Below, one piece after another: positions 1 through 12,298 of a DNA stretch of 64,000 nucleotides. The stretch comes from an uncultured Candidatus Saccharibacteria bacterium (GTDB taxonomy: Bacteria > Patescibacteriota > Saccharimonadia > Saccharimonadales > AWTP1-31), in the NCBI GenBank assembly GCA_964634445.1, contig CAZWJA010000003.1, forward strand, positions 24,019 through 88,018, written 5' to 3'. Both the position numbers and the translations under genes were made by a program. Position 1 is the stretch's first letter. The number at the start of each line of letters is the position of its first letter. Below the pieces are notes generated by a model that was not told the origin of the DNA, ran no database searches, and saw only the letters and a list, made by a program, of their open reading frames with translations.

Positions 1-97
1 TTACCTCGTCAATATGAGGAAAATCTTGTGCAGCATGAATAGGGGCTATGATTCTTTCACTCTCATTATAAATAGGGATAATAACTGCTGATTTCAT
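1..97 (-). CDS. Glycosyltransferase family 2, N-terminal fragment (gene runs off the window start)
   Basis: Not in the ORF track (too short). The reverse strand from ATG at 97..95 reads MKSAVIIPIYNESERIIAPIHAAQDFPHIDEV. The (V/I)IIPxYNE start is the classic GT2 N-terminal motif. Truncated by the window edge. Confidence 0.5.
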   Translation of the reverse strand, partial: MKSAVIIPIYNESERIIAPIHAAQDFPHIDEV

Positions 98-184
98 TGA
101 ATTTATTGTAACAGCTTACTCTTGCACTTTTAACATCTTATGTCTCAATATTATGTCGCACAATCAACATTCAGCGACGTACCC

Positions 185-260
185 TAACAGGGGTAGAGCC
201 ATTTATTTAGCGACATAAGGCTTTGTCAAGGGCTAGTGTTCTTTTCGCCTACCCCTGTTA
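185..260. repeat. Perfect 12-bp inverted repeat TAACAGGGGTAG (185-196) / CTACCCCTGTTA (249-260) with a 52-nt spacer
   Basis: Read directly from the sequence. It interleaves with a second inverted repeat, TTATGTCGC (151-159) / GCGACATAA (210-218). It lies just 3' of the minus-strand NTPase gene. Confidence 0.6.
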
Positions 261-287
261 AAAAGCATATTATACAATGTTGGTATT

Positions 288-1505
288 TCAGTAATCCAAA
301 TAGAAGTCACAATTGAAATGGCTGTCGTCATTATCACCAGGAAATCTTGAAATTGCCCACGGAATTGAAGGATGTCCCTTTACGCCCTGATTAGGATCAC
401 GAGTAATCAACTTAAAATCGTAACCTCCTCTGACGGGCTTATTCTCTCTATCAAGCAGTCCGCTATTGCCAACAATGGCCGACATTAGGGTATTAAAGTC
501 ACTCCCTCTAGCTACACGCCCTTGTTGTATGAACTGCTCAAAATAAGTCCTTCCGTCACCACTAGGTATTGGCACATATCTAGCCATCTCAAACATAATT
601 GTCATTCTAAAATCAGGGTCCAGACCTTCTTTTACTTGATTGGAGTAATTAAGGTCTGATTTCCTCAGAATCTGCTTCATCTTTCTCAAGGTCATGCCAG
701 GCTTAGCCAGCATTAACTCAAGAAATTGAATCATCTGTTGCTTAGCACCTTGTATTTCCAGATTATCTTTGTCGAATATCTCAGCTACAAACTTCGTTAG
801 ACCTATTCTCCTAGTTGCAAAATGCTCGATTATATCTAGACACTTCAGGTAGGAATCCTGATTTAGATTAAACATTTCATTTGCTATTGGTACTACGACT
901 TTGATTTTTGCTTCCGTGTGCTTTGACCGCAAATAATGTTTAAGGGTTTCTAGGAAGAAGATTCCAGCGTCCCCAGAACGATCAATGTCCTCTACGATTA
1001 TGACCACTTCTTTTTCTTTGCAATGTTTCTCAATTAACCCATCCAGCACCATCTGAACCTCGAAGGTTCTTCTTGCAGGAGTCGTTGAAAAGAAATGATT
1101 TAGACCCTTAACAGCACCCATGCCAGGGATAGAAGCTATAGTACCGACTAACGCTTGCTTATCATCATTCTGCTTACCATCTATCTTGCTCAGAGCTTCA
1201 TTAAACGCCTCCTGATCAATGTGTCGAGCAAATTCGAGTACGAAACCTTCCCATAGGTCCTTTCTTTCTGGGAACTTCCAAGCATCAAATTCAATCCATA
1301 GCGTGTCGCTTGATCTAGTCATATGTATTTGATGGAGCAACGTGCTTTTACCCGATCCGTATTCGCCCACCAACCCAATCATTGACCCACTTTTTGCACC
1401 TATAATCTTTTTATCAAAATCTTTAATCAGCCTACTTAAATCCAGAAGGTCCTCGATCTTGTGGCTTTCATCTAGTAGCTGGGGCTTTTTCACAAAAGAA
1501 ACCAT
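288..1505 (-). CDS. KAP-family-like P-loop NTPase (soluble; no transmembrane insert seen)
   Basis: Walker A is GLVGEYGSGKSTLL, followed by the KAP-typical FDAWKF...LWEGF motif. Walker B-like is VVIIVEDIDRSGD. The start is moved to the internal MVSFVKK (1505) because the 33 upstream codons look like a non-coding extension. Confidence 0.7.
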   Translation of the reverse strand: MVSFVKKPQLLDESHKIEDLLDLSRLIKDFDKKIIGAKSGSMIGLVGEYGSGKSTLLHQIHMTRSSDTLWIEFDAWKFPERKDLWEGFVLEFARHIDQEAFNEALSKIDGKQNDDKQALVGTIASIPGMGAVKGLNHFFSTTPARRTFEVQMVLDGLIEKHCKEKEVVIIVEDIDRSGDAGIFFLETLKHYLRSKHTEAKIKVVVPIANEMFNLNQDSYLKCLDIIEHFATRRIGLTKFVAEIFDKDNLEIQGAKQQMIQFLELMLAKPGMTLRKMKQILRKSDLNYSNQVKEGLDPDFRMTIMFEMARYVPIPSGDGRTYFEQFIQQGRVARGSDFNTLMSAIVGNSGLLDRENKPVRGGYDFKLITRDPNQGVKGHPSIPWAISRFPGDNDDSHFNCDFYLDY

Positions 1506-1767
1506 ACCTCGATTATACCTCCAAATTAACACCTTGGCCACAGGGATAGCACAAATACTCAACTCAAGCCTAGAACACGTCCAGAAAGCTCCTAAATGCT
1601 CCACAAAGGCATTAAATCTTGTTCACTAATCATGCATGAAATACCATAGGCTAGTGCGTATGAGAATTTTGTCCAGATTTTACACCCCTTAACGCCGTTT
1701 GCTTGAATAACTGCTGTACTTTCCGTACATCAAAATCTACAAAATCATCACAAAATGTAGCGATTTT

Positions 1768-2001
1768 CTATGGAAGTGCAAAGAAACTAAATACTACTTC
1801 ACTCTGCCTTTGTTTCGCCGCAGTCATCTTGTCTCTAAACACTTCATTATTACGCATGTAATAAAAGAAAGTTGTCCGACTTATACCAACCCAACGACAA
1901 GCCTCGGTGATTGTACTATTGTGCTGTATCGCATCCTCTAAACGTAGCATAGTAGTGTAGGTTACTTTAGGTGGTCTACCAACAGCTTTTTTGATTTCCA
2001 T
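1768..2001 (-). CDS. Small helix-turn-helix DNA-binding protein
   Basis: GRPPKVTYTTMLRLEDAIQHNSTITEACRWVGISRTTFFYYM is a resolvase/terminase-small-subunit-type HTH. The gene is divergent from recombinase 1. Confidence 0.6.
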   Translation of the reverse strand: MEIKKAVGRPPKVTYTTMLRLEDAIQHNSTITEACRWVGISRTTFFYYMRNNEVFRDKMTAAKQRQSEVVFSFFALP

Positions 2002-2061
2002 TTTTCTCCTTTGTTTTCGGCGTTGCCTCTCTTATCATTATCTCAAATGCATCATTTCTAC

Positions 2062-2090
2062 TTGACAATGCTTATGGTAAGGTGTATAAT
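2062..2090 (+). promoter_or_regulatory. Consensus sigma-70-type promoter (TTGACA, 17 nt spacer, TATAAT)
   Basis: TTGACA at 2062-2067, a 17-nt spacer, then TATAAT at 2085-2090, both matching consensus perfectly. It points toward 2223..4353. Confidence 0.5.
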
Positions 2091-2222
2091 TACTAACATA
2101 GAACTATGCCTCTAGGTGCTTAAAGCACAAACAACAATCGCTATTTTTTAGAGGCGAACAGCATTAAACCAATATAAACCCCTCGACCGTTCAGCGAGGT
2201 AAGTATAGTATTGGATTTTTTA

Positions 2223-2459
2223 ATGCTTACTCCTCAAACGACACAAGAGAGTGGTCAAGAACAAACACAAAACATCAACCCTGAGACACAACAAGATGCT
2301 AGTGATTACCACGCAATGGCATCAGTCGCAGAGCTACTGGTTACGCTTCGTAGCGATAACCAAAGCAACAAATACAAAACTGGGAAGAAACAATACACAA
2401 AAATGGATTTCATTGATAAGAAAACAGGAGAAGTCACCACGCAGCGAGTATTGTTTTAA
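2223..2459 (+). CDS. Hypothetical small Q/T-rich acidic protein
   Basis: This is the ORF-track frame 2211..2459, with the ATG at 2223 preferred. No recognisable domain. It competes with an overlapping alternative frame (2251..2469), so coding status is uncertain. Confidence 0.3.
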   Translation: MLTPQTTQESGQEQTQNINPETQQDASDYHAMASVAELLVTLRSDNQSNKYKTGKKQYTKMDFIDKKTGEVTTQRVLF

Positions 2460-2508
2460 TGTAGCCTAAACTTTCTCGAACTAATACATAGAGCTTATAA
2501 TTGTATCT

Positions 2509-4353
2509 ATGGACACTCTGAACACATCAAAGCAGTTATTCGACTTACTCAAAGAAGGGGTTGATCCTAAAGCTGGAGAAATTGACTATTCCGAACTGAA
2601 GTATGTAATTTATGCAAGAAAGTCTACTACTGGTGATGAAAGACAAGAACGTTCTATACCAGACCAGGTAAGGGATATTAAAGACAAAATTGTTGATGTT
2701 GACCAGATAGATGCCAATGGTGGCAAGTACCGATTAAATGTGAACAAGAAGGCTATCAAAGAGAAGTGTTCAGCTAAAGACCCTGGGATACGAGAGAAAT
2801 TTACCCAGCTCATTCAAGATGTTAAAGACGGTAAAGTAGACGGTATCATTGCATGGCATCCAGACAGATTGTCTCGAAACATGAAGGAGGCTGGTGAGAT
2901 TATCGACTTGCTCGATAAGGGCATCTTAAAAGACCTACGCTTTGCGACATCAACATTCGAAAATAGTCCAACTGGAAAGATGCTTCTCGGCATCTCTTTT
3001 GTCCTGTCCAAGCAATACTCTGAGCACCTTAGCGAGAGTGTAGCCAGAGGTAATCGCCGAAAGATTGAAGAAGGTGTCTTTATTGGCAAATTTAAGCATG
3101 GCTATCGTATGAACAAACAGAGTCAACTGTTTCCTGATGATAATAACTGGGTAATTATCAAAAAAGCATTCGATATGCGACTTAATGGCGAAACTCAACA
3201 GAACATAGCCGAATGGCTAAACACGACAGGTTATCAGGTATTTAAGCGTATAAAAGACGATGACAAAAACTCAGGATTCAAAAGAGCTGATTATACATGG
3301 GGTAAAGATACTGTGTCAGACCTCTTGAAAGACCCGATATACGCAGGGGTACTCAAGTATGGCGATAATCTGTGTAATTTAGAGGAGTTCTATGATTTCT
3401 CTCCTGTCATATCTGTTGAGAACTTCTTGAAAATTAACAAAGTAGACGACCTTAACTCCTCTAAACTAGTGTCATCCATTATGTCTAAAGACAAGCGAGA
3501 TACAAAAGCAAGTCTACTAAACGGAATGATACTTTGCGGGTTCTGCAATAAGGCTTTATCAGCTGGTCTAACATCAAAGGTACTTGCCAGTAAGGAGAAG
3601 ATACATTATTACAATTACAGATGCGAAACTGAGCATTGTGAGTTCAAAAACAAGAGTATCCGTGCAAATGTAATTCTTGATTACTCCTATGCTTTCCTCG
3701 GCGAACACCTATTTACAACTAAATCTAATTACGACAAATTCAAACTGGGTGCTAGGGATCAGGTTATGCAACGCAACAAAGAGATTAGAAGCCTGATTGG
3801 TTCAGCAAAGCAAGGTATTGGACGTAAACAGGAAGAGCTAGACAGTACGAAAGACTTAATTAGACACAATCCTGAACTAAAGGAAGATTACGACCTGAAA
3901 GAGATAAAGAGTGATTTAGAGGATATGAAGGCTGAACTTACGAAGCTAGAAGCTACACTAAAGACATCTAAGGACGCAATTTTGTCTTATGACGAATATC
4001 TCGAACTATTCAAACTCATATCTGTAGAATTGCCAAAATCACAGAATCAAGAGCTACTTGATGGAATACTTAGAATCTTCTTCTCGAACTACACAATTAA
4101 GCGTTACGGAACGGGCAAGCAACAGAGGTACGAAATCACCCATAAATTAAACGAACCCTGGAATGGGTTCGTTAACTCGAAAGATTTCGATCATGGTCGC
4201 AATACAGATACTGCTAACGAACCTGTACTGGACACATTATACAACCTGCTCCTGCACTACAAGTTACTTCTGTCAAAGCTGACCGACCTGAACCAGTTAG
4301 TAGCTGACTTAATCAAGCCAGAGCGAGCCGTTGAAACACAGTTTTTGCTATAA
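2509..4353 (+). CDS. Large serine recombinase 1
   Basis: Resolvase catalytic motifs YVIYARKSTTGDERQERSIPDQ and AWHPDRLSRN. A recombinase domain follows, then a Cys zinc ribbon (CGFCNKAL ... YRCETEHCEF) and a coiled-coil C-terminal region. Confidence 0.9.
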   Translation: MDTLNTSKQLFDLLKEGVDPKAGEIDYSELKYVIYARKSTTGDERQERSIPDQVRDIKDKIVDVDQIDANGGKYRLNVNKKAIKEKCSAKDPGIREKFTQLIQDVKDGKVDGIIAWHPDRLSRNMKEAGEIIDLLDKGILKDLRFATSTFENSPTGKMLLGISFVLSKQYSEHLSESVARGNRRKIEEGVFIGKFKHGYRMNKQSQLFPDDNNWVIIKKAFDMRLNGETQQNIAEWLNTTGYQVFKRIKDDDKNSGFKRADYTWGKDTVSDLLKDPIYAGVLKYGDNLCNLEEFYDFSPVISVENFLKINKVDDLNSSKLVSSIMSKDKRDTKASLLNGMILCGFCNKALSAGLTSKVLASKEKIHYYNYRCETEHCEFKNKSIRANVILDYSYAFLGEHLFTTKSNYDKFKLGARDQVMQRNKEIRSLIGSAKQGIGRKQEELDSTKDLIRHNPELKEDYDLKEIKSDLEDMKAELTKLEATLKTSKDAILSYDEYLELFKLISVELPKSQNQELLDGILRIFFSNYTIKRYGTGKQQRYEITHKLNEPWNGFVNSKDFDHGRNTDTANEPVLDTLYNLLLHYKLLLSKLTDLNQLVADLIKPERAVETQFLL

Positions 4354-4362
4354 TATAAGAGT

Positions 4363-4545
4363 ATGAGTGACGCAAGTGACAACCAACCACAAGACCAAGC
4401 TCCTGCTGAGCCTGTTAGCTTGCCACCGCAAACGTCACCACAGGACACATCTAACTGGGACGACAGACCATTTACCACACCTAGTGACCGAGTTGTTATA
4501 GAGACATTTCAAGGAAGCGACGACGAAGTTGTCGTAGCTGAATAA
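4363..4545 (+). CDS. Hypothetical small acidic P/Q-rich protein
   Basis: ORF only, no recognisable domain. It starts 10 nt after the recombinase 1 stop. Confidence 0.35.
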   Translation: MSDASDNQPQDQAPAEPVSLPPQTSPQDTSNWDDRPFTTPSDRVVIETFQGSDDEVVVAE

Positions 4546-4625
4546 CTAAACCTAAAACTTGCTGAACCTACCAGTAGCTACCAACTACCTACAATAATTA
4601 TAACTAATTAGTAGGAGTTACTTCT

Positions 4626-5039
4626 ATGAGTAAAACATTAGACGAAAAACAGCAGTTTATTGAACTGCGAGCCAAAGGTTACAGCTACCAGAAAATAGCT
4701 GATGATATTGGTGTAAGCAAACCAACCCTAATTGAGTGGTCAAAGGAAGAGCAAACGTCAAAGGACATACACAACCAACGAACGCTGTACCTAGACGAGT
4801 TACAAGAAAAGTATGCAATGACTAAACGTCATAGGATTGCCGTGTTTGGCGATGTACTGAACCGAGCAAAGGCAGAACTTGATAAGCGTGACTTGTCAGA
4901 AATGTCCACTGACAAGCTGGTAACAATGGTTATTAAGTTAAGTGACACGTTACGGCAGGACGAAACGGAGCTAGAACTACACGGAGACTATGAGCTACCT
5001 GCCTTTGGACTTGGTGAAATGACTAAGTGGAAGATTTAA
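4626..5039 (+). CDS. HTH DNA-binding protein with coiled-coil tail
   Basis: The N-terminal sequence LRAKGYSYQKIADDIGVSKPTLIEWSKE is a resolvase/IS-type HTH. An AGGAG ribosome-binding site lies upstream (4612-4616). Confidence 0.6.
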   Translation: MSKTLDEKQQFIELRAKGYSYQKIADDIGVSKPTLIEWSKEEQTSKDIHNQRTLYLDELQEKYAMTKRHRIAVFGDVLNRAKAELDKRDLSEMSTDKLVTMVIKLSDTLRQDETELELHGDYELPAFGLGEMTKWKI

Positions 5040-5126
5040 CGACCAAAAATTGACCGTTTTTTAACCGATAAGCCTTTTATTGGCTATCTGTTAGTTGTAT
5101 AATAATGTTATATAAAGTGAGATTGT

Positions 5127-5309
5127 ATGACCGACACTAAACAACCAGAATATTTAACCCTTACACAAGCCTGTGAACTGTTGCAGGTACACCCAAACAC
5201 CCTACGAAACTGGGACAAAAAAGGTGTACTGAAAGCCAACCGCATAGGCATACGTGGCATACGACGTTACAAGCGTGAAGACTTAATTAAGTTTATGGAG
5301 AAGAAGTGA
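5127..5309 (+). CDS. Excisionase/MerR-type HTH protein (possible recombination directionality factor)
   Basis: LTLTQACELLQVHPNTLRNWDKKGVLKANRIG...RRYKREDL matches the HTH_17/excisionase pattern. It is 60 aa long and is the first gene of the coupled operon. Confidence 0.65.
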   Translation: MTDTKQPEYLTLTQACELLQVHPNTLRNWDKKGVLKANRIGIRGIRRYKREDLIKFMEKK

Positions 5310-5863
5310 GCGAAGTTGTGACCGATAAAACCGAGACTGCACCGACAAAGGAAATGACCGCACAGGACGTGGTTGATGTTATTAAACTATGTGACGAAAA
5401 CGGTATAGAGGTCTACGTTGACGGTGGTTGGGGTGTGGACGCCTTACTTGGCGAACAAACACGAAAACACGGTGACCTAGATATTGCACTACCCCACATA
5501 CACGTACCAAAGTTAAGGGAGCTGCTTGAAGCAAAAGGCTATAAGGACGTCCCCCGTGACGACACAAGGGACTGCAATTTTGTGCTGGGTGATGATAAGG
5601 GACACGAGATTGATTTTCACTCATACACCTTTGACGAAAACGGTAAAAACGTGTTTGGAGTGGCTTACGAACCACGTCACTTAACAGGCACAGGGTCTAT
5701 AAATGGCTATGCCGTTAAGTGCATACCAGCAGACGTAATGGTTGAGTTTCATAGCGGTTATGAATTAGACCAAGATGACTATCACGATGTTAAAGCATTG
5801 TGTGACAGATTTGATATACCACTACCAGCAGAGTACGAAAAGTTTAAGACAGAGGGGGTGTAA
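5306..5863 (+). CDS. ANT(2'')-Ia-family (PF10706-like) nucleotidyltransferase
   Basis: VDGGWGVDALLGEQTRKHGDLDI closely parallels the ANT(2'')-Ia active-site stretch GGGWAIDARLGRVTRKHDDIDL, which I am recalling from memory. Size is about 185 aa. The GTG start overlaps the upstream stop (GTGA). Confidence 0.75.
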   Translation: MSEVVTDKTETAPTKEMTAQDVVDVIKLCDENGIEVYVDGGWGVDALLGEQTRKHGDLDIALPHIHVPKLRELLEAKGYKDVPRDDTRDCNFVLGDDKGHEIDFHSYTFDENGKNVFGVAYEPRHLTGTGSINGYAVKCIPADVMVEFHSGYELDQDDYHDVKALCDRFDIPLPAEYEKFKTEGV

Positions 5864-6519
5864 TGCCACCAGGAGTACGACCAGACTTTAAGTACGACAG
5901 CTCTAAGCTGGTATTAACGTGCAGAAATTGCCATAACAAGGTACTTGCAGTTGCCCTAACTGACGTACCAGAAGTGAAATATGGCGACACCGAAGTGTGG
6001 CTGATAGCTAAATGTCCGCAATGTAGCGAAAAGGTATTTGTTATATTTGACACCTTGAACCACTACGTCAGCAGGACTTTTCCTTTTGGCTACATCACAG
6101 CCTCTGATTACAGTGATGATATACCAGAAAACATACGCACCGACCTAGCAGAAGCCGAGTTGTGTAGGCGAGCACAGGCATATCGGGCGTCAGTTGTCTT
6201 ATATAGACGAGTAGTTGAAAGTGTCGCCAAAAAGGAGCTTGGTCAAAAGAAGATAACTGATAATAAAGCAGATAACCTCAAAAAGAAAATCACACTGATG
6301 TTTAGCGAGGGGCTGATTACAAAGCCAATAGAGCAACAGGCTCAGGAAATAAGAGAGTTTGGCAACTACGGTGCTCACCCAGCAGATGACGGGCTTGACC
6401 TTGATATTGGTAGAGAAGACGTTGAACTAATTGACGACCTAGTATGGGACATAATTCGTACTATTTACATACAGTCAGCCAATCACAAGAAACTAAAAGC
6501 TAAGCGGACAGGAGAATAA
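5863..6519 (+). CDS. Zinc-ribbon plus DUF4145-like domain protein
   Basis: The N-terminal region has CRNC...CPQC (a 4-Cys ribbon). The C-terminal helical region, AYRASVVLYRRVVESVAKK ... REFGNYGAHPADD, matches the DUF4145 pattern. The start overlaps the upstream stop (TAATG). Confidence 0.6.
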   Translation: MPPGVRPDFKYDSSKLVLTCRNCHNKVLAVALTDVPEVKYGDTEVWLIAKCPQCSEKVFVIFDTLNHYVSRTFPFGYITASDYSDDIPENIRTDLAEAELCRRAQAYRASVVLYRRVVESVAKKELGQKKITDNKADNLKKKITLMFSEGLITKPIEQQAQEIREFGNYGAHPADDGLDLDIGREDVELIDDLVWDIIRTIYIQSANHKKLKAKRTGE

Positions 6520-6521
6520 TT

Positions 6522-7256
6522 ATGAAAACAATTCTTATAACTGGTGCTACGAGAGGCATAGGACGGGCTATTACCGACAAGCTATTGTCAGAGGGTCACA
6601 CGATTTACGGTGTTCATAAGGAAAGCAGCTCTCAAGCTGACGAAATGACCTCTAAACACGGTGACAAGTTTAAGTCTATACGAGCAGACCTTGCCAAACC
6701 AGATGACACAAAACAGCTACTAGAACAGCTTAAAGACGTACAGCTAGACGGCATTGTAAACAACGCTGGCATTGTGTACTTAACAAAATGGGACGAGTTG
6801 AACTTTGACGAGTGGGACGAAACACTAGCCGTTAACCTAACTGCTCCTCTTAAATTAGTACACGGATTACGTAACAACTTAAAAGACGGCTCAACGGTAG
6901 TAAATATAGCTTCTGTGGACGGATTTTGTGCTGCATTTGACACTGTTGCCTATGCAGCAAGCAAGGCTGGACTTATTAGTCTAACAAAATCACTTGCTGC
7001 AATTTTAGGCTCACGTAACATACGGGTAAATGCTGTTGCACCAGGCTGGGTTGAGACCGAAATGACAGCCGATACTATGCCTGATGAAAGCAAAGAGCTT
7101 ACACCGTTAAAGCGTAATGCTAAGCCCGAAGAAGTGGCGAGCGTAGTTAGTTTTCTGATGTCAGACCAAGCCAGTTTTGTTAGTGGTACAACCCTAACTG
7201 TTGACGGTGGTTTAACTACCGTTGACTACACGCTATACAAGGAAGCAAACCGATGA
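6522..7256 (+). CDS. Short-chain dehydrogenase/reductase (classical SDR, FabG-like)
   Basis: Contains TGATRGIGRAI (TGxxxGxG), NNAG, the catalytic YAASKAG (YxxxK) and the PGWVETEM motif. Confidence 0.9.
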   Translation: MKTILITGATRGIGRAITDKLLSEGHTIYGVHKESSSQADEMTSKHGDKFKSIRADLAKPDDTKQLLEQLKDVQLDGIVNNAGIVYLTKWDELNFDEWDETLAVNLTAPLKLVHGLRNNLKDGSTVVNIASVDGFCAAFDTVAYAASKAGLISLTKSLAAILGSRNIRVNAVAPGWVETEMTADTMPDESKELTPLKRNAKPEEVASVVSFLMSDQASFVSGTTLTVDGGLTTVDYTLYKEANR

Positions 7257-7696
7257 AAATCTTTGTAGCAGCGTCCTACTCGTCACAAGTTAATTATGAA
7301 ACTGGTGAGGTTTTTCCAGAATACAAGGAGTGGCTGGAAAGTACACTGGGAGTGATAGAAGCTCTTGGTCATACAGTCTTTTGTGCATTACGAGCAGACC
7401 AGTACAAAATCAACGACGCTGACCCAGCAGAAGCATTTAGCCTTGATATGGAACATATAGAGCAAAGTGACGTTTTACTGGCGTTGTTAAGCGATAAACC
7501 CTCTGCTGGTGTTCAGACCGAAATTGGGGTGGCGGTGGCACTCAAAAAGCAAGTACTGTTAGCCCATTTACCAGAACACGAACTTGCATACTTTAATGCT
7601 GCAATGGCAAAAGCAGGTGTTATAACCGAGCTTGAACTACCACTTACAGCAGAGGGAATTGGCAAAGTACTAAATGCCAGACAAGAAGCCTCGTAA
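7253..7696 (+). CDS. Nucleoside 2-deoxyribosyltransferase-fold protein (NDT-like), copy 1
   Basis: It opens with MKIFVAASY in the N-terminal strand and has SDVLLALL ... SAGVQTEIGVAVALKKQVLLA, the S.G...E.G.A.ALkK.v pattern of the NDT family. The ATGA overlaps the SDR stop. A paralog lies at 37464..37874. Confidence 0.55.
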   Translation: MKIFVAASYSSQVNYETGEVFPEYKEWLESTLGVIEALGHTVFCALRADQYKINDADPAEAFSLDMEHIEQSDVLLALLSDKPSAGVQTEIGVAVALKKQVLLAHLPEHELAYFNAAMAKAGVITELELPLTAEGIGKVLNARQEAS

Positions 7697-9515
7697 AAAA
7701 CGTCAAAAGGTACTGCTACCAAAGGACAAACAGCTTGAGACTGAGCAAAAGTTAGCCAAGCGTAAAGCTGAAAATCCTGACGTGTATACCCTGCCCGTCA
7801 GTAAGCGTAGCGTCCAAGACCTAACCGAATACTTTGTACGAGTTGAAGAGGGTGCAAACCGCATATTGCCCAAAGAGAAACGCCGTTACGTGGTGTATCT
7901 GCGTAAGTCTACTGATGATGAAGCCAAGCAGGTACGGTCACTGGAAGACCAACGAGCCGAGTGCCTAGAACTAGCTCACAGGCTTAAAATAACAGTAGAC
8001 GAACGGGACATACTTGAAGAAAGTGCTTCTGCAAAAATATCAGGCAACAGACCCATATTTGACGATATGATTATGGGCTTTAAGACAGGTAAGTATCACG
8101 GGCTAATTGCTTGGTCACCAGACCGCATATCACGCAATATGAAAGAAGCTGGCGAGGTCATAGAAATGATTGACCAAGAGCAAATACAAGACTTGCAATT
8201 CAAGACCTACCAGTTTGAGAACAACCCGAACGGCAAAATGCTACTAGGCATACTGTTTGCCACATCTAAGCAGTATTCTGACAAATTGTCAGTGGACGTA
8301 AGCAGAGGCATTACAGGCAATATCAAGGACGGTAAGTACACGGGTGTTACCAAAAAGGGTTACTACGTAGACAAAAGTACGGGCTACTTTATGCCAGACG
8401 GTTATAACTGGGACTTGCTGCGTGAAGCAGTCAATATGAGACTGTATCAGGGTAAAAACAATATAGAGATTGCTGACTTCTTGAATAAATCACATCTAGG
8501 TGTCAGAAAAGACCAAGACGAAGACCACGCAATGGTCAAAGTAGACAAGCAAATGGTAGGCGATATTTTTGCCGACCCGTTTTATTTTGGCTTGTATCAG
8601 TACGGTAAGAACTTGGCTGATTTGACTGAACTGTACGACTTCCTGCCATTGCTTACACCCGACGAACATATTCAGCTTAATCAAGGCATAGCAAGTAGTT
8701 TTGGTGTTAAATATGCTGGCAAAGCCGTACAAAATAAACGCCTAGACTACGGACTGTTACGAGGCAAGGTCATTTGTGATTACTGCGACACCATAATGCA
8801 GTTTCAGCACCAGGAAATTAAGCGTGGTAAAAACAAAGGTCGCTGGCTGATTAGCTTCTACTGCCGAAACAAGGACTGCCAACGCTACAAGGACGAAGAG
8901 AACGCCAAAGCAGGTATAAAGCTCAAGAAGAGTGTACGAGCTGGCATTGTAATGGCTCATATAGAGTGGACACTGCGTAACTGTACTAAGAAAAGCAAAC
9001 AGGCGTATAGGCAGTACATTGACAGGTTGAGCGTCAGATTGGCTCAGGACACGGCGATTGCTAAACGTAAGCTATCAGAAGCCAAGACCGACCTGCGAAC
9101 CAATGAAAAGCAGTATGCGAGGTATCAGGACTTTCAGATTAAGCACCCTGCTGATTACAAGAAGCACCATACTGGCAAGCTGGAACATCACCAGCAACTT
9201 ATAAACGTAGCCAAGCACAACATTAATAAGAGCGAGGACGAACTGAAACGGTTGAGTGCTGGACTGCCTACCGAGAAAGAGTTTTACGAACTTGTTAAAT
9301 CGTATCTGGTGACGCTACTGAAAACGACTGATTTAATGGAACAAGACGCTGTGTGTAACGAGCTGGTGTTGAACCTACGAGTAGCAAACGACGCTGTATC
9401 TGTTATAAAGCTAAATCCACCATACAATATGCTGGTGGATTTAACGAAAATATCTACTGGTCGGGGTGAAAGGACTCGAACCTTCGACCTGACGGTCCCA
9501 AACCGTCCGCGCTAG
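7674..9515 (+). CDS. Large serine recombinase 2 (3' end reads into tRNA-Pro)
   Basis: Contains YVVYLRKSTDDEAKQVRSLEDQ and AWSPDRISRN, plus a zinc ribbon CDYCDTIM ... FYCRNKDCQRY and a coiled coil. It has a Lys/Arg-rich 70-aa N-terminal extension. The last ~19 codons are the antisense of tRNA-Pro. Confidence 0.9.
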   Translation: MPDKKPRKKRQKVLLPKDKQLETEQKLAKRKAENPDVYTLPVSKRSVQDLTEYFVRVEEGANRILPKEKRRYVVYLRKSTDDEAKQVRSLEDQRAECLELAHRLKITVDERDILEESASAKISGNRPIFDDMIMGFKTGKYHGLIAWSPDRISRNMKEAGEVIEMIDQEQIQDLQFKTYQFENNPNGKMLLGILFATSKQYSDKLSVDVSRGITGNIKDGKYTGVTKKGYYVDKSTGYFMPDGYNWDLLREAVNMRLYQGKNNIEIADFLNKSHLGVRKDQDEDHAMVKVDKQMVGDIFADPFYFGLYQYGKNLADLTELYDFLPLLTPDEHIQLNQGIASSFGVKYAGKAVQNKRLDYGLLRGKVICDYCDTIMQFQHQEIKRGKNKGRWLISFYCRNKDCQRYKDEENAKAGIKLKKSVRAGIVMAHIEWTLRNCTKKSKQAYRQYIDRLSVRLAQDTAIAKRKLSEAKTDLRTNEKQYARYQDFQIKHPADYKKHHTGKLEHHQQLINVAKHNINKSEDELKRLSAGLPTEKEFYELVKSYLVTLLKTTDLMEQDAVCNELVLNLRVANDAVSVIKLNPPYNMLVDLTKISTGRGERTRTFDLTVPNRPR

Positions 9516-9534
9516 CCAACTGCGCCACACCCCG
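9458..9534 (-). tRNA. tRNA-Pro (anticodon UGG), CCA encoded
   Basis: Manual cloverleaf: acceptor CGGGGTG/CACCCCG, D arm GCGC-AGTTGGCTA-GCGC, anticodon arm GACGG-TTTGGGA-CCGTC, variable AGGTC, T arm GAAGG-TTCGAGT-CCTTT (one G.U pair), discriminator A, then CCA. Total 77 nt. Confidence 0.9.
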
Positions 9535-9571
9535 ATACCCGGGTAATTTTAACAGATTGAATGTTATTTTA

Positions 9572-10210
9572 CTATACCTCTATCTCTATGCTTTCCCCGT
9601 CAACGGGTCGGATAATTCTTGTGTCTGTATTCTTGAATACATCTTCAAGACGGTTATAGACATGGTTTCGCCATTCATCATTCCACATCCAATCGTGAAT
9701 CGGAATAATATACTTTGGCTTTAATTCCAGTCCTAATTCAAAAGCCCGGATAGTAGTACCCCATGGAGCTTGCACAGGTAGCAGTAAAACGTCTTTAGTT
9801 TCATTAAAATCATGGGTATCACCTGGACCTGTTACCTTGCCGAATATATTTACGATTAAGTTTTGGACTTGGACGCCAAAAGGAACGACTTTGGCATGGT
9901 CTACTGTCTTAACTTCAACTACATCTGTCGACTGGTCGCTGACGTTTATTACACCCAACGATTTAAGATCGTCAAAAGCATCAGCCGGGGCAAGCCACCG
10001 TACGTCTGGTTGTAGTTCGACAATTGCTTTTACGAATGGCTCACCAAGATGGTCGGCGTGTTTATGAGTCACAATAACAGCATCTAACTTAGGAAACTTG
10101 GAAACTTCTATTATACCGCTGTTCCAACTAAATATTCCCGGGTCAATTAGAATTACTTTTCCTGCCTCTTCAATTAAGACGCACGAATGGACTAGCTTTG
10201 TGATTTTCAT
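9572..10210 (-). CDS. MBL-fold metallo-hydrolase
   Basis: HxHxDH motif (VTHKHADHLG), an N-terminal beta-lactamase-fold pattern (KLVHSCVLIE) and a C-terminal His (IPIHDW). Confidence 0.8.
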   Translation of the reverse strand: MKITKLVHSCVLIEEAGKVILIDPGIFSWNSGIIEVSKFPKLDAVIVTHKHADHLGEPFVKAIVELQPDVRWLAPADAFDDLKSLGVINVSDQSTDVVEVKTVDHAKVVPFGVQVQNLIVNIFGKVTGPGDTHDFNETKDVLLLPVQAPWGTTIRAFELGLELKPKYIIPIHDWMWNDEWRNHVYNRLEDVFKNTDTRIIRPVDGESIEIEV

Positions 10211-10212
10211 AT

Positions 10213-10407
10213 CTAGTCTTTCCCAAAGGGGTTATCTCTAACTACCTGGCTGCCAATTCCAGCAATCATACCGAGCAAAAAGATAATGAAAGCAATTGTT
10301 AATTTGGCCAATATTGCGAAAACTATTCCAGTTGCTATCAATATTAGAGCTGAAGCTAGCAGCTGCTTGGCAAGGTTGGGTTTTGGAGGAATATCGAACT
10401 TTGCCAT
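10213..10407 (-). CDS. Small membrane protein
   Basis: 64 aa with two hydrophobic helices. It is tightly packed between its neighbours (2-nt gaps). Confidence 0.45.
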   Translation of the reverse strand: MAKFDIPPKPNLAKQLLASALILIATGIVFAILAKLTIAFIIFLLGMIAGIGSQVVRDNPFGKD

Positions 10408-10409
10408 TT

Positions 10410-10736
10410 TCAGTACCCGCTTGGAATTCCAGATTTAGCAGGTACTTTTTCTGCCCTTGTTAAGAGTCTTCTATATTCTAAATTACGAGATGAAATGTCT
10501 AATTCCAATGATTCTAATAGACTAGCAAACCCGTCTAGCGTATTTGTTTGTCGATCAATGCTTTTTTCAAGTTTTGTAACATTTTCTTCAAGTTGATTAA
10601 ATCTATGATCAACATTAATAGCCAACTGATTTATAACGTCTGTTAAATCATCAACTATTTTATTGCTGAGATCTTTTCCAAAGTCTATCAAGTCGCTTTT
10701 ACTTACATAGTCGGTTTGAGAATTTTTTACTGCCAT
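10410..10736 (-). CDS. Hypothetical coiled-coil protein (tail motif AK.G....Y)
   Basis: Heptad-like helical sequence. The C-terminal ...AEKVPAKSGIPSGY resembles the tail of the ORF at 41261..41500. Confidence 0.45.
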   Translation of the reverse strand: MAVKNSQTDYVSKSDLIDFGKDLSNKIVDDLTDVINQLAINVDHRFNQLEENVTKLEKSIDRQTNTLDGFASLLESLELDISSRNLEYRRLLTRAEKVPAKSGIPSGY

Positions 10737-10783
10737 CGTAAGAATATATTACGCCTTAAGTTATTCTCAAACAATTGTATTAT

Positions 10784-12298
10784 CTACTTGGCGAATTCAA
10801 TTGCCCGGGTTTCTCGAATAACATTCACTTTGATAGTACCTGGGTACTGCATAGTGCTTTCAATCTTGTTGGCAATGTCTCGAGCTAGTCGGATTGCACT
10901 TAGGTCATCTACATTCTGAGGTTTTACGAAAACTCTGACTTCTCGTCCAGCACTAATGGCGTAGCTCTTATCGATGCCTTCGAAACCGTTGGCAATATTT
11001 TCTAGTTCCTTCATTCTTTCGCCGAAATTCTCAGCGCTTATGTTTCGGGCGCCAGGACGTGATGCGCTAATCGCATCTACCACTCGGACAATGACTGCCT
11101 CTACGCTGGTCGCTTCGACGTCGTCGTGATGCTGCTCGGCTGCTAATGCAACTGCCTCGGGCGCACCGTACTTACGCAGCATTTCCCCACTAATATGGTG
11201 GTGCTTGCCCTCTATCTTATGAGTTAAAGCTTTGCCTAAGTCGTGGACTAGAGCCGCGTACTTGGCAATCCGGACATCTGCGCCGACTTCTTCGGCGATA
11301 ACACCGGCAATATGGGCCATCTCAGTACTGTGCTTCAGAACGTTCTGTCCATAGCTAGTCCGGTATTTAAGTTCACCGAGAAGCTGAAGTACTTCCTTTG
11401 GTATTCCAATTACTCCGACTTCACGAGCTGCATCTTCTCCAGCCCGGATAACATCTTTCTGGACATTCTTCTGAGCCTTTTCTACGACTTCTTCTATTCT
11501 TCCTGGATGTACTCGTCCGTCTTTTAACAACAGCTCAAGAGCTTGTCTTGCGACTTCACGCCTAACAGGATCAAACGAACTTAGGATGATCATACCAGGC
11601 GTGTCGTCGACCATGATGTCGACACCGGTGGCCCGCTGCAGCGACTGGATATTACGGCCTTCCTTGCCAATGATTCGGCCCTTCATTTCTTCGTCTTCTA
11701 ATTTGACAGCTGTTACCGTTCGCTCTGCTGTCACTTCACTAGCCATCCTCTCCATAGCAGAAGTCAGGATAACGGCCGCTTTTTCTTCTGCATTGTCTTT
11801 AGCCTCATTCTGCAATTTGTTTACAAGACCAAGAAGATCATTTTTGATATCGCGTTCAGTCATCTTGATAAGCTTCTCTGCTGCTTCTTCTTTCGTCAGC
11901 TTAGCGACTTTTTCCAGCTTTTCAGTCTGGCGTTTTCGGATATCACGAATCTCATTCTTAAGTTCCTCTAATTCGTCTTCGCCTTTACGCAGTGCATCTC
12001 CGCGCTTGTCTAATTGGTCAAGCTTCTTATCTAACGACTCCTGCCGGTCTAACAATTTCTGTTCAATTTCTTTAATTTCACGCCGTCTTGTCTGCTCGTC
12101 TTTACGGGCAGCATCGGCCATCTTGTTGGCTTCCTCACGGGCATCGCTAATAGCTTTTTCTGCTTCCTTGCGGGCTTTCTTGAGTTCCTTTTCAGCTGCA
12201 TCCTGAGCTGTTCCTATTTTTCTTTTGCTTGAATACGTACTGGCACCAAAGCCAATACCAAGCCCAGCCAATGCTAGTACAATGGTTATCGGGTCCAT
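10784..12298 (-). CDS. rny: Ribonuclease Y
   Basis: N-terminal transmembrane helix, a long charged coiled coil, a KH domain (GRIIGKEGRNIQ) and an HD domain (HDLGKA ... HH). Confidence 0.92.
   Translation of the reverse strand: MDPITIVLALAGLGIGFGASTYSSKRKIGTAQDAAEKELKKARKEAEKAISDAREEANKMADAARKDEQTRRREIKEIEQKLLDRQESLDKKLDQLDKRGDALRKGEDELEELKNEIRDIRKRQTEKLEKVAKLTKEEAAEKLIKMTERDIKNDLLGLVNKLQNEAKDNAEEKAAVILTSAMERMASEVTAERTVTAVKLEDEEMKGRIIGKEGRNIQSLQRATGVDIMVDDTPGMIILSSFDPVRREVARQALELLLKDGRVHPGRIEEVVEKAQKNVQKDVIRAGEDAAREVGVIGIPKEVLQLLGELKYRTSYGQNVLKHSTEMAHIAGVIAEEVGADVRIAKYAALVHDLGKALTHKIEGKHHHISGEMLRKYGAPEAVALAAEQHHDDVEATSVEAVIVRVVDAISASRPGARNISAENFGERMKELENIANGFEGIDKSYAISAGREVRVFVKPQNVDDLSAIRLARDIANKIESTMQYPGTIKVNVIRETRAIEFAK

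Follow-up and report, generated by a model that had tools for sequence, protein, structure and literature searches.

Tandem serine recombinase elements at the CCA end of a Saccharibacteria proline tRNA gene, with integrase genes that appear to span their own attachment sites

Serine integrases are the main tools for large-DNA insertion, and their natural targets have been thought to avoid transfer RNA (tRNA) genes. A stretch of 64,000 nucleotides from an uncultured Candidatus Saccharibacteria bacterium (contig CAZWJA010000003.1 of assembly GCA_964634445.1, positions 24,019 to 88,018; hereafter the window) raises the question of how a serine recombinase can come to lie at the 3' end of such a gene. 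Its left end holds an island with two genes for large serine recombinases (LSRs), LSR1 and LSR2, next to a tRNA-Pro(UGG) gene whose 3' end points toward the island; homologue and relative matches likewise make the host a member of the Saccharibacteria. A first-pass annotation had called a serine recombinase at this position unusual, in agreement with a 2020 survey in which the use of tRNA genes by serine integrases stood as unreported and in need of proof (Mageeney et al., PMC7192596). It had also offered two readings of the island: two tandem elements, each with its own recombinase, or one element with a recombinase pair. Here we report that positions 154-9459 very probably hold a tandem of two distinct integrative elements at the CCA end of tRNA-Pro(UGG): element 1 of about 4.0 kb, with LSR1 (154-4195), and element 2 of 5.26 kb, with LSR2 (4194-9459; 5264 bp between cores), the cargo of the two being unrelated.

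The accessory mobile island proposed at first pass was borne out in content. Genes in the window were taken from open reading frame (ORF) calls and a Pfam domain scan, tRNA genes from ARAGORN and Rfam, and NCBIfam curated cut-offs were applied to cargo, Ccr and excisionase matches. A KAP-family NTPase, helix-turn-helix (HTH) proteins, an Xis-like protein, cargo genes and both LSRs are all present, bounded by the tRNA-Pro 3' end. Gene content alone sets the island apart, its base composition being that of the rest of the window. The tRNA-Pro(UGG) gene (9458-9534, minus strand; ARAGORN, and 64.4 bits with Rfam) is intact, encodes its CCA and forms the B' half of the attachment (att) site. The island is indeed bounded there, but the ORF of LSR2 overruns the boundary, 58 nt antisense into the tRNA gene. 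Its left edge, formerly set at 98, had to be moved to 154-155: in an alignment of four loci, everything left of ATGTCG is unrelated and everything to the right is conserved. Positions 98-153 are the old tRNA-distal flank, that is, the B arm, the original downstream remnant of tRNA-Pro, which now lies 9.3 kb away from the gene.

The overrun into the tRNA gene has a regular form. LSR1 (2509-4353, 614 aa) and LSR2 (7674-9515, 613 aa) have the same orientation, lie 3.3 kb apart and are 30% identical over 565 residues (E 1e-63). The last 18 residues of LSR2, GRGERTRTFDLTVPNRPR, are a reverse-complement reading of the acceptor and T arms of tRNA-Pro(UGG). Homologues number 402 for LSR2 and more than 1500 for LSR1; C-termini were inspected in the 240 listed (120 of them LSR1 homologues), most of which end in a tRNA-antisense C-terminus or in GRG*, GRGERT* or GRGDRI*, the same reading ended by a T-arm stop. 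We surveyed 60 LSR 3' ends, that of the window among them, in assemblies from Logan, NCBI, ENA and JGI. The offset from the first base of LNPPY, the motif of the LSR2 type, or LNEPW, that of the LSR1 type, to the minus-strand tRNA gene is 47 nt in 54 of the 60 and 48 nt in the other 6. Their targets are tRNA-Pro(UGG) in 37 cases, Pro(CGG) in 5, Pro(GGG) in 5, Gln in 7, Val in 3, Leu in 2 and Ile in 1. An IMG/VR scan, counted apart from the survey, yielded only two LSR1-type genes (L153 11501-11623 and L154 10343-10465; contigs are labelled L and homologous proteins P), both abutting tRNA-Gly(GCC) and running antisense into it at the 47-nt offset. Because the 47- or 48-nt offset recurs in 60 LSR 3' ends and in these two contigs, the geometry is, judged from sequence, not due to chance, and CCA-end targeting is a property of two large Saccharibacteria LSR clades and no single oddity.

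The two proteins are large serine recombinases by domain content, invariant residues and modelled fold, with their activity predicted. Both match Resolvase (PF00239; E 1.7e-17 for LSR1, 1.7e-18 for LSR2) and Recombinase (PF07508; E 3e-11 for LSR1; E 6.1e-5 for LSR2, at 23.6 bits against a cut-off of 21.1). The motifs Y-x-R-K-S-T and P-D-R-x-x-R-N are invariant across 34-55 sequences, and so are four zinc-ribbon cysteines (C368, C371, C397 and C402 in LSR2 numbering); the Pfam Zn_ribbon_recom match is sub-threshold and found in LSR1 only. No Phage_integrase (tyrosine recombinase) domain occurs in any island ORF. An AF2 (AlphaFold2) model of P0017, a homologue in its free form, has a mean predicted local distance difference test score (pLDDT) of 82, with strands at 371-401 followed by long helices at 447-532. 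Its top Foldseek matches are the SPbeta integrase (9y66/9dxd, E 1e-17), Bxb1 (9iu2), PhiC31 (9rah) and LI (4kis), each at probability 1.00; the best matches range from E 1e-17 to 4e-9, differences in domain arrangement between the models keep TM-scores low, and a profile match to SprA reaches E 1e-12. The K/R-rich N-terminal extension of LSR2 noticed at first pass (residues 1-70, window 7674-7883) is conserved across the LSR2 clade and modelled as two confident helices (P0017 residues 22-66, pLDDT 79-92), with no counterpart in the solved LSR structures matched. Pfam searches with this extension alone, and with the C-terminal tail described below alone, returned nothing meaningful.

That the island is two elements follows the evidence of a second att-type junction in its middle. 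Window positions 4194-5311 and 7684-9534 match at about 91% (blastn) a contig from another genome, L058, in which a single element of the element 2 type sits at tRNA-Pro. Identity begins exactly at 4194 (TGGTCGCAAT...); to the left of the equivalent position stands a chromosomal terminator hairpin in L058 and the 3' end of LSR1 in the window. The coding stretch that starts here, which we call the tail exon, is found with 100% protein identity in five left contexts (L058, L143, L144, L146/L147 and window/L152), two of which are terminator hairpins, and in all five the break falls at |TGGTCG. Element 2 is placed at 4194-9459 because the identity to L058 starts at 4194 and the identical tail exon always breaks at |TGGTCG. 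Positions 4194-4199, the blastn break against L058, thus form the junction of element 1 with element 2 (P1 arm, TGGTCG, P2' arm), an attP-like hybrid site, and the attR of element 2 (9458-9463) is again TGGTCG, the complement of the discriminator-plus-CCA end of tRNA-Pro, and contains the crossover.

We give almost no credence to the other first-pass reading, in which the island would be one composite element with a cooperating recombinase pair, like ccrAB of SCCmec, whose action would be confined to the outer ends. The presence of two paralogous LSRs with one orientation in a single 9.3-kb island does recall such a pair, and NCBIfam reports weak CcrB and CcrA similarity, far under the cut-offs (CcrB 61.2 and 21 bits against 900, CcrA 31.3 bits against 700). 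The LSRs are, however, 3.3 kb apart with an att-type junction between them, and each element type is found alone, the element 2 type in L058 and L143 (both at tRNA-Pro), L144 and L146, and the element 1 type at tRNA-Pro in L059. In L062, moreover, a different LSR1-type element (46% identical) stands upstream of the same element 2 type. The tandem of an LSR1-type followed by an element 2-type element recurs in L062 and L093. From the layout in the window we infer that element 1 inserted first and element 2 later, between element 1 and the tRNA gene.

If element 2 begins at 4194, the end of the annotated LSR1 gene belongs to the neighbouring element. Homologues P0122 and P0123, 87% identical to LSR1, end directly in tRNA-Pro; P0228, only 46% identical to LSR1 and followed in L062 by an element 2-type element, has a tail that nevertheless differs from the window's tail exon at one residue. 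The 52-residue end of LSR1 is therefore the tail exon of element 2 (4196-4353, plus strand; E 2.6e-28 with a hidden Markov model (HMM) of the tail), read in frame by LSR1. The matching length of "~614 aa" that had been noted for the two recombinases is accordingly a coincidence: LSR1 is made of 562 residues of its own (body 2509-4195, plus strand, up to the crossover; Resolvase, Recombinase and Zn_ribbon_recom domains) plus 52 from element 2, and LSR2 of 595 (body 7674-9459, plus strand, up to the crossover; Resolvase and Recombinase domains, the called ORF going on to 9515) plus 18 tRNA-antisense codons.

Where the tail exon belongs is indicated by forms of these elements that assemble as circles. 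Close LSR2 homologues (P0017, P0021 and P0103) end not in tRNA codons but in a 52-residue tail, GR.TDTAIEP.L..LY.LLLNY...SERA..QFLL; those of P0017 and P0021, which are encoded on contigs assembling as circles, are about 75% identical to the window's tail exon. In contigs L003/L004 (4680 bp) and L006 (7031 bp) the two termini overlap exactly over 127 bp, and L005-L008, which come from four metagenomes, show one 6.9-kb element in permuted forms. The LSRs of these contigs are 651-652 aa long and carry the long tail. No tRNA gene occurs on L003-L008. Body and tail are joined in the circle-assembling forms and the tail lies at the far end when the element is integrated, which places attP inside the LSR gene. 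As read from these two arrangements, the integrated LSR loses its last 52 codons, and the circle-assembling form encodes the full-length enzyme of about 650 aa.

One might take the small circles for autonomous plasmids, the LSR serving chiefly as a resolvase and the chromosomal copies being by-products. We regard this as very improbable, even though circle-assembling contigs of 4.5 and 6.9 kb were obtained repeatedly from several metagenomes. They show no recognisable gene for replication, partition or transfer, integrated copies far outnumber circles (60 against about 8 distinct), and the P' arm tracks the target tRNA. A search for phage or plasmid functions gave no Rep, partition, capsid or terminase match of note, and a phage or plasmid assignment was set aside. 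A 241-aa ORF of L006 (1727-2452) matches phrog_32160, of unknown function (E 2e-41), so that viral protein collections already include relatives of these elements.

The displaced tails can be found in integrated copies as well. When the tail HMM was run against six-frame translations of all loci, 35 of the 60 tRNA-adjacent LSRs proved to have an orphan in-frame tail exon of about 52 codons upstream, on the LSR strand, in most cases at a distance of 3-8 kb and once of 11 kb; 21 of the 25 contigs without one have less than 3 kb of upstream DNA. Most tail exons begin with TGG. Over their first 6-8 nt they reproduce the terminal sequence of the target tRNA, with TGGTCG in Pro elements, TGGTGG in those at Val, Ile and Leu, and TGGCTG or TGGCTA in Gln elements. 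All 18 distinct tail exons are open, with differences by codon position of 0.40, 0.27 and 0.54, the third being the highest; judged from these alignments, the tail exon is coding. Many copies have just 1-5 codons between an upstream stop and the junction and most tails have no Met, so that the exon has little or no room for a start codon of its own. In the 48-nt subgroup (L096, L099, L117, L118, L122 and L133), the frame is shifted, the integrated ORF ends in ...SWSG*, and the upstream tail exons align partially to the tail HMM.

That the tail is no part of the LSR, being an independent small gene or a non-coding attP arm whose read-through is incidental, seems to us very unlikely. Such a reading could draw on the model of P0017, in which the tail is a helix of modest confidence behind a disordered linker, on the lack of any family match, and on the complete look of integrated LSRs without it. 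It is opposed by the 18 of 18 copies that keep 52 open in-frame codons with the third positions most variable, by the 1-5 upstream codons that leave next to no space for a start, and by the tail being always fused in frame in circle-assembling forms; an LSR attP arm, besides, needs about 25 bp and not 156 bp. In P0017 the modelled fold ends near residue 593, the crossover codons G601-R602 lie in a linker with pLDDT below 50, and the tail forms a separate helix at 609-640. Because these codons sit in a low-confidence linker between the fold and the tail helix, the predicted structure thus places the crossover where the LSR fold stays undisturbed by the cut.

The position of the crossover can be narrowed further. 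Empty tRNA-Pro(UGG) genes in relatives encode CCA and are followed by unrelated sequence. The attL and attR of one element share just 6-8 bp (TGGTCG in the Pro-targeting element 2 types), and across all junctions and all tRNA classes only TGG, the complement of CCA, is common. In element 1 types, the left junction reads xATG|TCGCAC and the attR at the tRNA gene caTG|GTCGGGG (L059). The core dinucleotide is most likely TG, the complement of the terminal CA, since the element 1 left junction xATG|TCGCAC is set against caTG|GTCGGGG at the tRNA; GT, GG or a one-base loss in element 1 may be alternatives. The inferred attL core of element 1, TG at 154-155, rests on the xATG|TCGCAC junction in four loci. 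No displaced tRNA-Pro fragment occurs in 1-10500 or elsewhere in the window, and no long direct repeats occur in 1-10500, only TGGTCG/TGTCG being common; no tRNA fragment is displaced because the mature tRNA stands in full to one side of the exchange. Opposite it, the chromosomal arm is rich in A/T and without visible consensus, which would let the junction of a resident element itself serve as a target, so that arrays build up. Extra tail exons, or exons preceded by the 3' end of another LSR, stand upstream of tRNA-adjacent elements in L083/L084 (5364, 6880) and L093 (118), and arrays and remnants at a single tRNA gene seem common.

From these observations a mechanism can be proposed. Each element would be moved by its own LSR, which lies at the right end and reads outward, with attP inside the 3' end of the LSR gene and the body ending about 47 nt past LNPPY or LNEPW. 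In the circle, body and 52-codon tail would be joined to give an enzyme of about 650 aa. Strand exchange within TGG, likeliest at TG, would keep the mature tRNA whole and duplicate no tRNA fragment, and the integrated LSR would swap its native tail for junk codons read antisense through the tRNA gene, from a few up to about 45 of them. The tRNA's terminator would be shifted to the far end, and a hairpin encoded in the LSR gene would follow the tRNA instead. With one conserved half-site in the tRNA and a consensus-free other half, a second element could insert beside a resident one; element 2 would in this way have entered between element 1 and the tRNA gene and left LSR1 reading the element 2 tail exon. 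Integration by attP x attB recombination, and excision with a directionality factor, are suggested indirectly: the same element types are found both integrated and assembling as circles, and an excisionase-family HTH gene lies beside the cargo. For element 2, the predicted attP2 junction of the free form is ...AAAATATCTAC-TGGTCGCAATACAGATAC; the restored P1-tRNA junction would read ...GATTTCGATCA-TGGTCGGGGTGAAAGG and the fully empty site ...CTCAATATTA-TGGTCGGGGTGAAAGG.

The hairpin invoked here lies within the codons for the conserved LSR motif. In LSR2 it occupies the LNPPYNMLVDL codons (9411-9444, minus strand; -19.6 kcal/mol, z -5.2), 14 nt downstream of the tRNA CCA, and a terminator scan found another in the LNEPWNGFV codons of LSR1 (4150-4173, minus strand; -23.2 kcal/mol, z -4.0). 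Both are inverted repeats of 9-12 bp on the tRNA strand, and a U-rich stretch comes after that of LSR2. Across an alignment of 38 sequences, the LSR2 hairpin has 87.9% of its cells paired, against at most 43% with slid partners, and 13 cells are changed on both sides (A-U to G-C, C-G to G-C or A-U), a number reached in 0 of 500 shuffles. LSR1-type hairpins have another sequence in the same place, with compensatory variants in L059 and L062. The tRNA's own terminator stands displaced at the far junction in L058 and L146. Because integration moves that terminator away, the hairpin at 9411-9444 is a candidate replacement terminator for tRNA-Pro, a proposal for and against which we find the case evenly balanced. 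It would most likely terminate or process the tRNA transcript and hold down antisense transcription that enters the LSR gene.

Several observations weigh against the account given so far. The circle-assembling contigs could arise from tandem identical copies and not from free circles. For this exact strain neither an empty site nor a circular junction was recovered, and the exact LSR2 protein is not on record elsewhere. The first-pass annotation had proposed a search for empty sites in related genomes; empty tRNA-Pro(UGG) sites were indeed found, but in relatives without the same flanking synteny, so that no strain-level empty site is among them. Logan contigs L001/L002 (SRR8893622/3), which belong to the same population and are equivalent to window 9458-9640, simply break at tRNA-Pro. 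The left junction of element 1 is ATGTCG and not TGGTCG, which may reflect the TG core, or a lost G that locked element 1 in place, and no free form was found of an element 1-type element with its left-end module (153-278, below). A conserved protein motif and part of the binding site expected for the P arm coincide with the hairpin, whose conservation could thus have more than one cause. The tail helix, finally, is modelled with only moderate confidence (pLDDT 60-73) and has no family match. On L001/L002, the metallo-beta-lactamase (MBL)-fold neighbour is identical in another sample, one contig stopping inside tRNA-Pro and the other 2 bases short of the CCA; these ends may mark an assembly-graph branch at the attachment site and are no proof of an empty site. 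A genome-collection scan with the MBL-fold neighbour returned relatives only 56-69% identical.

Some of the same observations would suit a fixed relic, in which one or both elements are unable to excise and the LSR/tRNA overlap is a frozen scar: the left junction of element 1 one G short of TGGTCG, the missing free form or empty site for this strain, and element 1 no longer in contact with the tRNA gene. We hold this to be unlikely, though less so than the composite, plasmid and separate-gene alternatives, as the ORFs of both LSRs are unbroken and retain every invariant catalytic and zinc residue, and the element 2 tail exon is open, its identical copies in at least five contexts pointing to recent spread; the exon also keeps a coding-type substitution pattern across the family.

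Its consequence for the enzyme is more speculative. The tail swap could change the activity or stability of the LSR, so that an element "knows" its state, in analogy to the Mx8 integrase IntP and, more loosely, to the split integrases of the SSV type (both below); we put this forward tentatively and a little short of believing it. On this switch model the full-length enzyme would be produced from the circle alone and carry out integration, and the tail-less one, produced from the chromosome alone, would stay silent or need an Xis-like partner to excise. Somewhat more doubtful still is the wider proposal that split serine integrases form a large undescribed class in Saccharibacteria which docks on the tRNA acceptor and T arm and cuts at the CCA, with the tail exchange as a state switch, the hairpin as a stand-in terminator and the clade as a natural retargeting series, the last because the P' arm varies with the target tRNA (Pro, Gln, Val, Leu, Ile) over its first 6-8 nt.

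Comparison with known systems sets these elements apart in different ways. Like the LSRs of phages (SPbeta SprA, Bxb1, PhiC31, Listeria A118/LI), they have Resolvase and Recombinase domains followed by a zinc ribbon and a long coiled coil, and their junctions show a short identity block only, without long repeats. Unlike them, the Saccharibacteria enzymes (12-15% identical to those of phages) carry a folded N-terminal helical extension in the LSR2 type and a detachable C-terminal tail, target a tRNA CCA end instead of a protein-coding gene or intergenic site, have attP in the integrase ORF, and belong to elements of 3-8 kb with no phage genes. SCCmec/ccr composite islands at rlmH (orfX) are serine recombinase elements that reuse one conserved half-site and pile up in tandem. 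They differ from the present case in that the target is the end of a protein-coding gene, two Ccr proteins cooperate in most types, and the ccr genes are internal and do not span att.

Closer parallels for the position of attP come from tyrosine recombinases. We take the target of the myxophage Mx8 integrase, IntP, to be the 3' end of a tRNA gene. As proposed here, the integrase gene contains attP in its 3' end (a 1996 account cited in PMC4383910); Mx8 IntP is, however, a tyrosine recombinase of a 50-kb phage, and chemistry, site architecture and family all differ. The "suicidal" integrases of the SSV type split their gene upon integration into tRNA genes, and are tyrosine recombinases called exclusive to archaea (PMC8371274). 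In contrast to the SSV split, which inactivates the gene in two large parts, here a 52-codon tail is detached and the catalytic body left intact. Islander/TIGER-class tyrosine-integrase islands share with our elements the boundary at a tRNA 3' end, the integrase beside the tRNA and the variable cargo. Such islands cross over inside the tRNA gene, where a replacement fragment leaves the displaced fragment as a direct repeat (PMC4383910); our elements differ from them in a crossover at the terminal CCA, just 6-8 bp in common, no tyrosine recombinase and no tRNA fragment. In the literature searched, an integrase gene spanning its own attP is described only for tyrosine enzymes (Mx8, SSV). The searchable literature gave no description of tRNA-targeting or attP-spanning LSRs, or of these Saccharibacteria elements, which is no proof of novelty.

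Saccharibacteria and Patescibacteria have few genetic tools. An LSR clade with base-exact CCA-end geometry shows a way to spare the target tRNA while duplicating no fragment of it, and offers a testable case of a recombinase whose protein product would depend on the integration state. It holds natural specificity variants for Pro, Gln, Val, Leu, Ile and Gly tRNAs, and elements of 3-8 kb that could serve as compact integrating vectors native to Saccharibacteria/Patescibacteria. Its members would also explain how small cargo cassettes (nucleotidyltransferases, restriction-modification systems, NTPases) move among reduced genomes. Should the split-integrase switch be true, the clade would amount to a natural series of retargeted integrases aimed at conserved sites.

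Element 2 combines a constant backbone with changing cargo. Next to the tail exon lie orf60 (4363-4545, plus strand), which has no family match and is kept with element 2 in L058, L062, L143 and L152, and a gene for a 137-aa HTH_23 protein (4626-5039, plus strand; PF13384), the identical protein being found on 10 contigs from other samples. The Xis-like protein announced at first pass is encoded at 5127-5309 (plus strand): it is an HTH_17/MerR excisionase-like protein (PF12728, E 1.8e-12) that passes the cut-off of the TIGR01764 "excisionase" model (32.7 bits against 28.8), and a candidate recombination directionality factor. The variable slot that follows (5306-7696, plus strand) has four genes, for a Lnu/ANT(2'')-like nucleotidyltransferase, a DUF4145 protein, an SDR (short-chain dehydrogenase/reductase) protein and a nucleoside 2-deoxyribosyltransferase-like protein. 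Elsewhere this slot holds a UPF0020 methylase (L058), DUF4145, SDR and cupin genes (L062) or nucleotidyltransferase, DUF4145 and SET genes (L143); the backbone genes are constant across copies and the cargo varies. Of the "resistance-like" label once given to the cargo, the affinity survives, the closest match to the product of 5306-5863 being Lnu(D); its scores of 133.8 bits there (cut-off 325) and 113 bits for Lnu(P) both fall far short of the cut-offs, and we do not call it a resistance gene. It is nearer to lincosamide nucleotidyltransferases than to ANT(2'')-Ia (31.5 bits).

Element 1 begins with a left-end module of about 125 bp (153-278), non-coding save for at most 10-18 codons, with a 12-bp stem. 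Copies 77-82% identical stand at island left ends in L059 (5664-5791), L062 (8267-8393) and L011 (15138-15263, reverse complement); left of ATGTCG the four loci diverge completely. The module contains the stem AACAGGGGTAG...CTACCCCTGTT and an outward-facing TATAAT, and was seen in only four closely related lineages, one copy adjoining an LSR2-type remnant. Rfam has no match to it, and the four copies lack compensatory change in the stem, and we make no claim of an RNA; in 1-12000 at E<=1, Rfam gave the tRNA plus one chance snoRNA match and nothing else. The cargo gene of element 1 encodes a KAP-family P-loop NTPase (288-1604, minus strand; PF07693, 30.9 bits, E 2.2e-7). A role as a defence system was considered and dropped, PADLOC showing only weak P-loop similarity to PifA/QatA. 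In other element 1-type copies (L059, L062 and L011) the same slot holds a peptidase S58, NT5C or a type III restriction-modification system. A small HTH protein follows (1768-2001, minus strand; weak HTH_28/HTH_29 matches), divergent from the LSR1 operon and in a stretch conserved in L059/L060. Between its gene and orf82/LSR1 lies a sigma-70-type promoter match, TTGACA-17-TATAAT (2062-2090, plus strand), a 12/12 consensus match, and no more than that, which is the sole perfect one in the first 10.3 kb. Upstream of LSR1 stands the small orf82 (2211-2459, plus strand; no family match), and 2294-4199 is conserved in L059.

In L011 (9215-15263), tRNA-Pro(UGG) is empty and an island with a type III restriction-modification system sits instead at tRNA-Pro(CGG). 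Only the last 80 or so LSR codons are left in it, fused to an unrelated N-terminus, and the island is probably a decayed, immobile element. At the left flank of the window's island, positions 1-97 (minus strand) hold the start of a chromosomal gene that leaves the window, its translated N-terminus reading MKSAVIIPIYNESERI...; from motif alone, it looks like a GT2 glycosyltransferase gene. The genes of the right flank are housekeeping genes, for the MBL-fold hydrolase, RNase Y, TsaB and TsaE.

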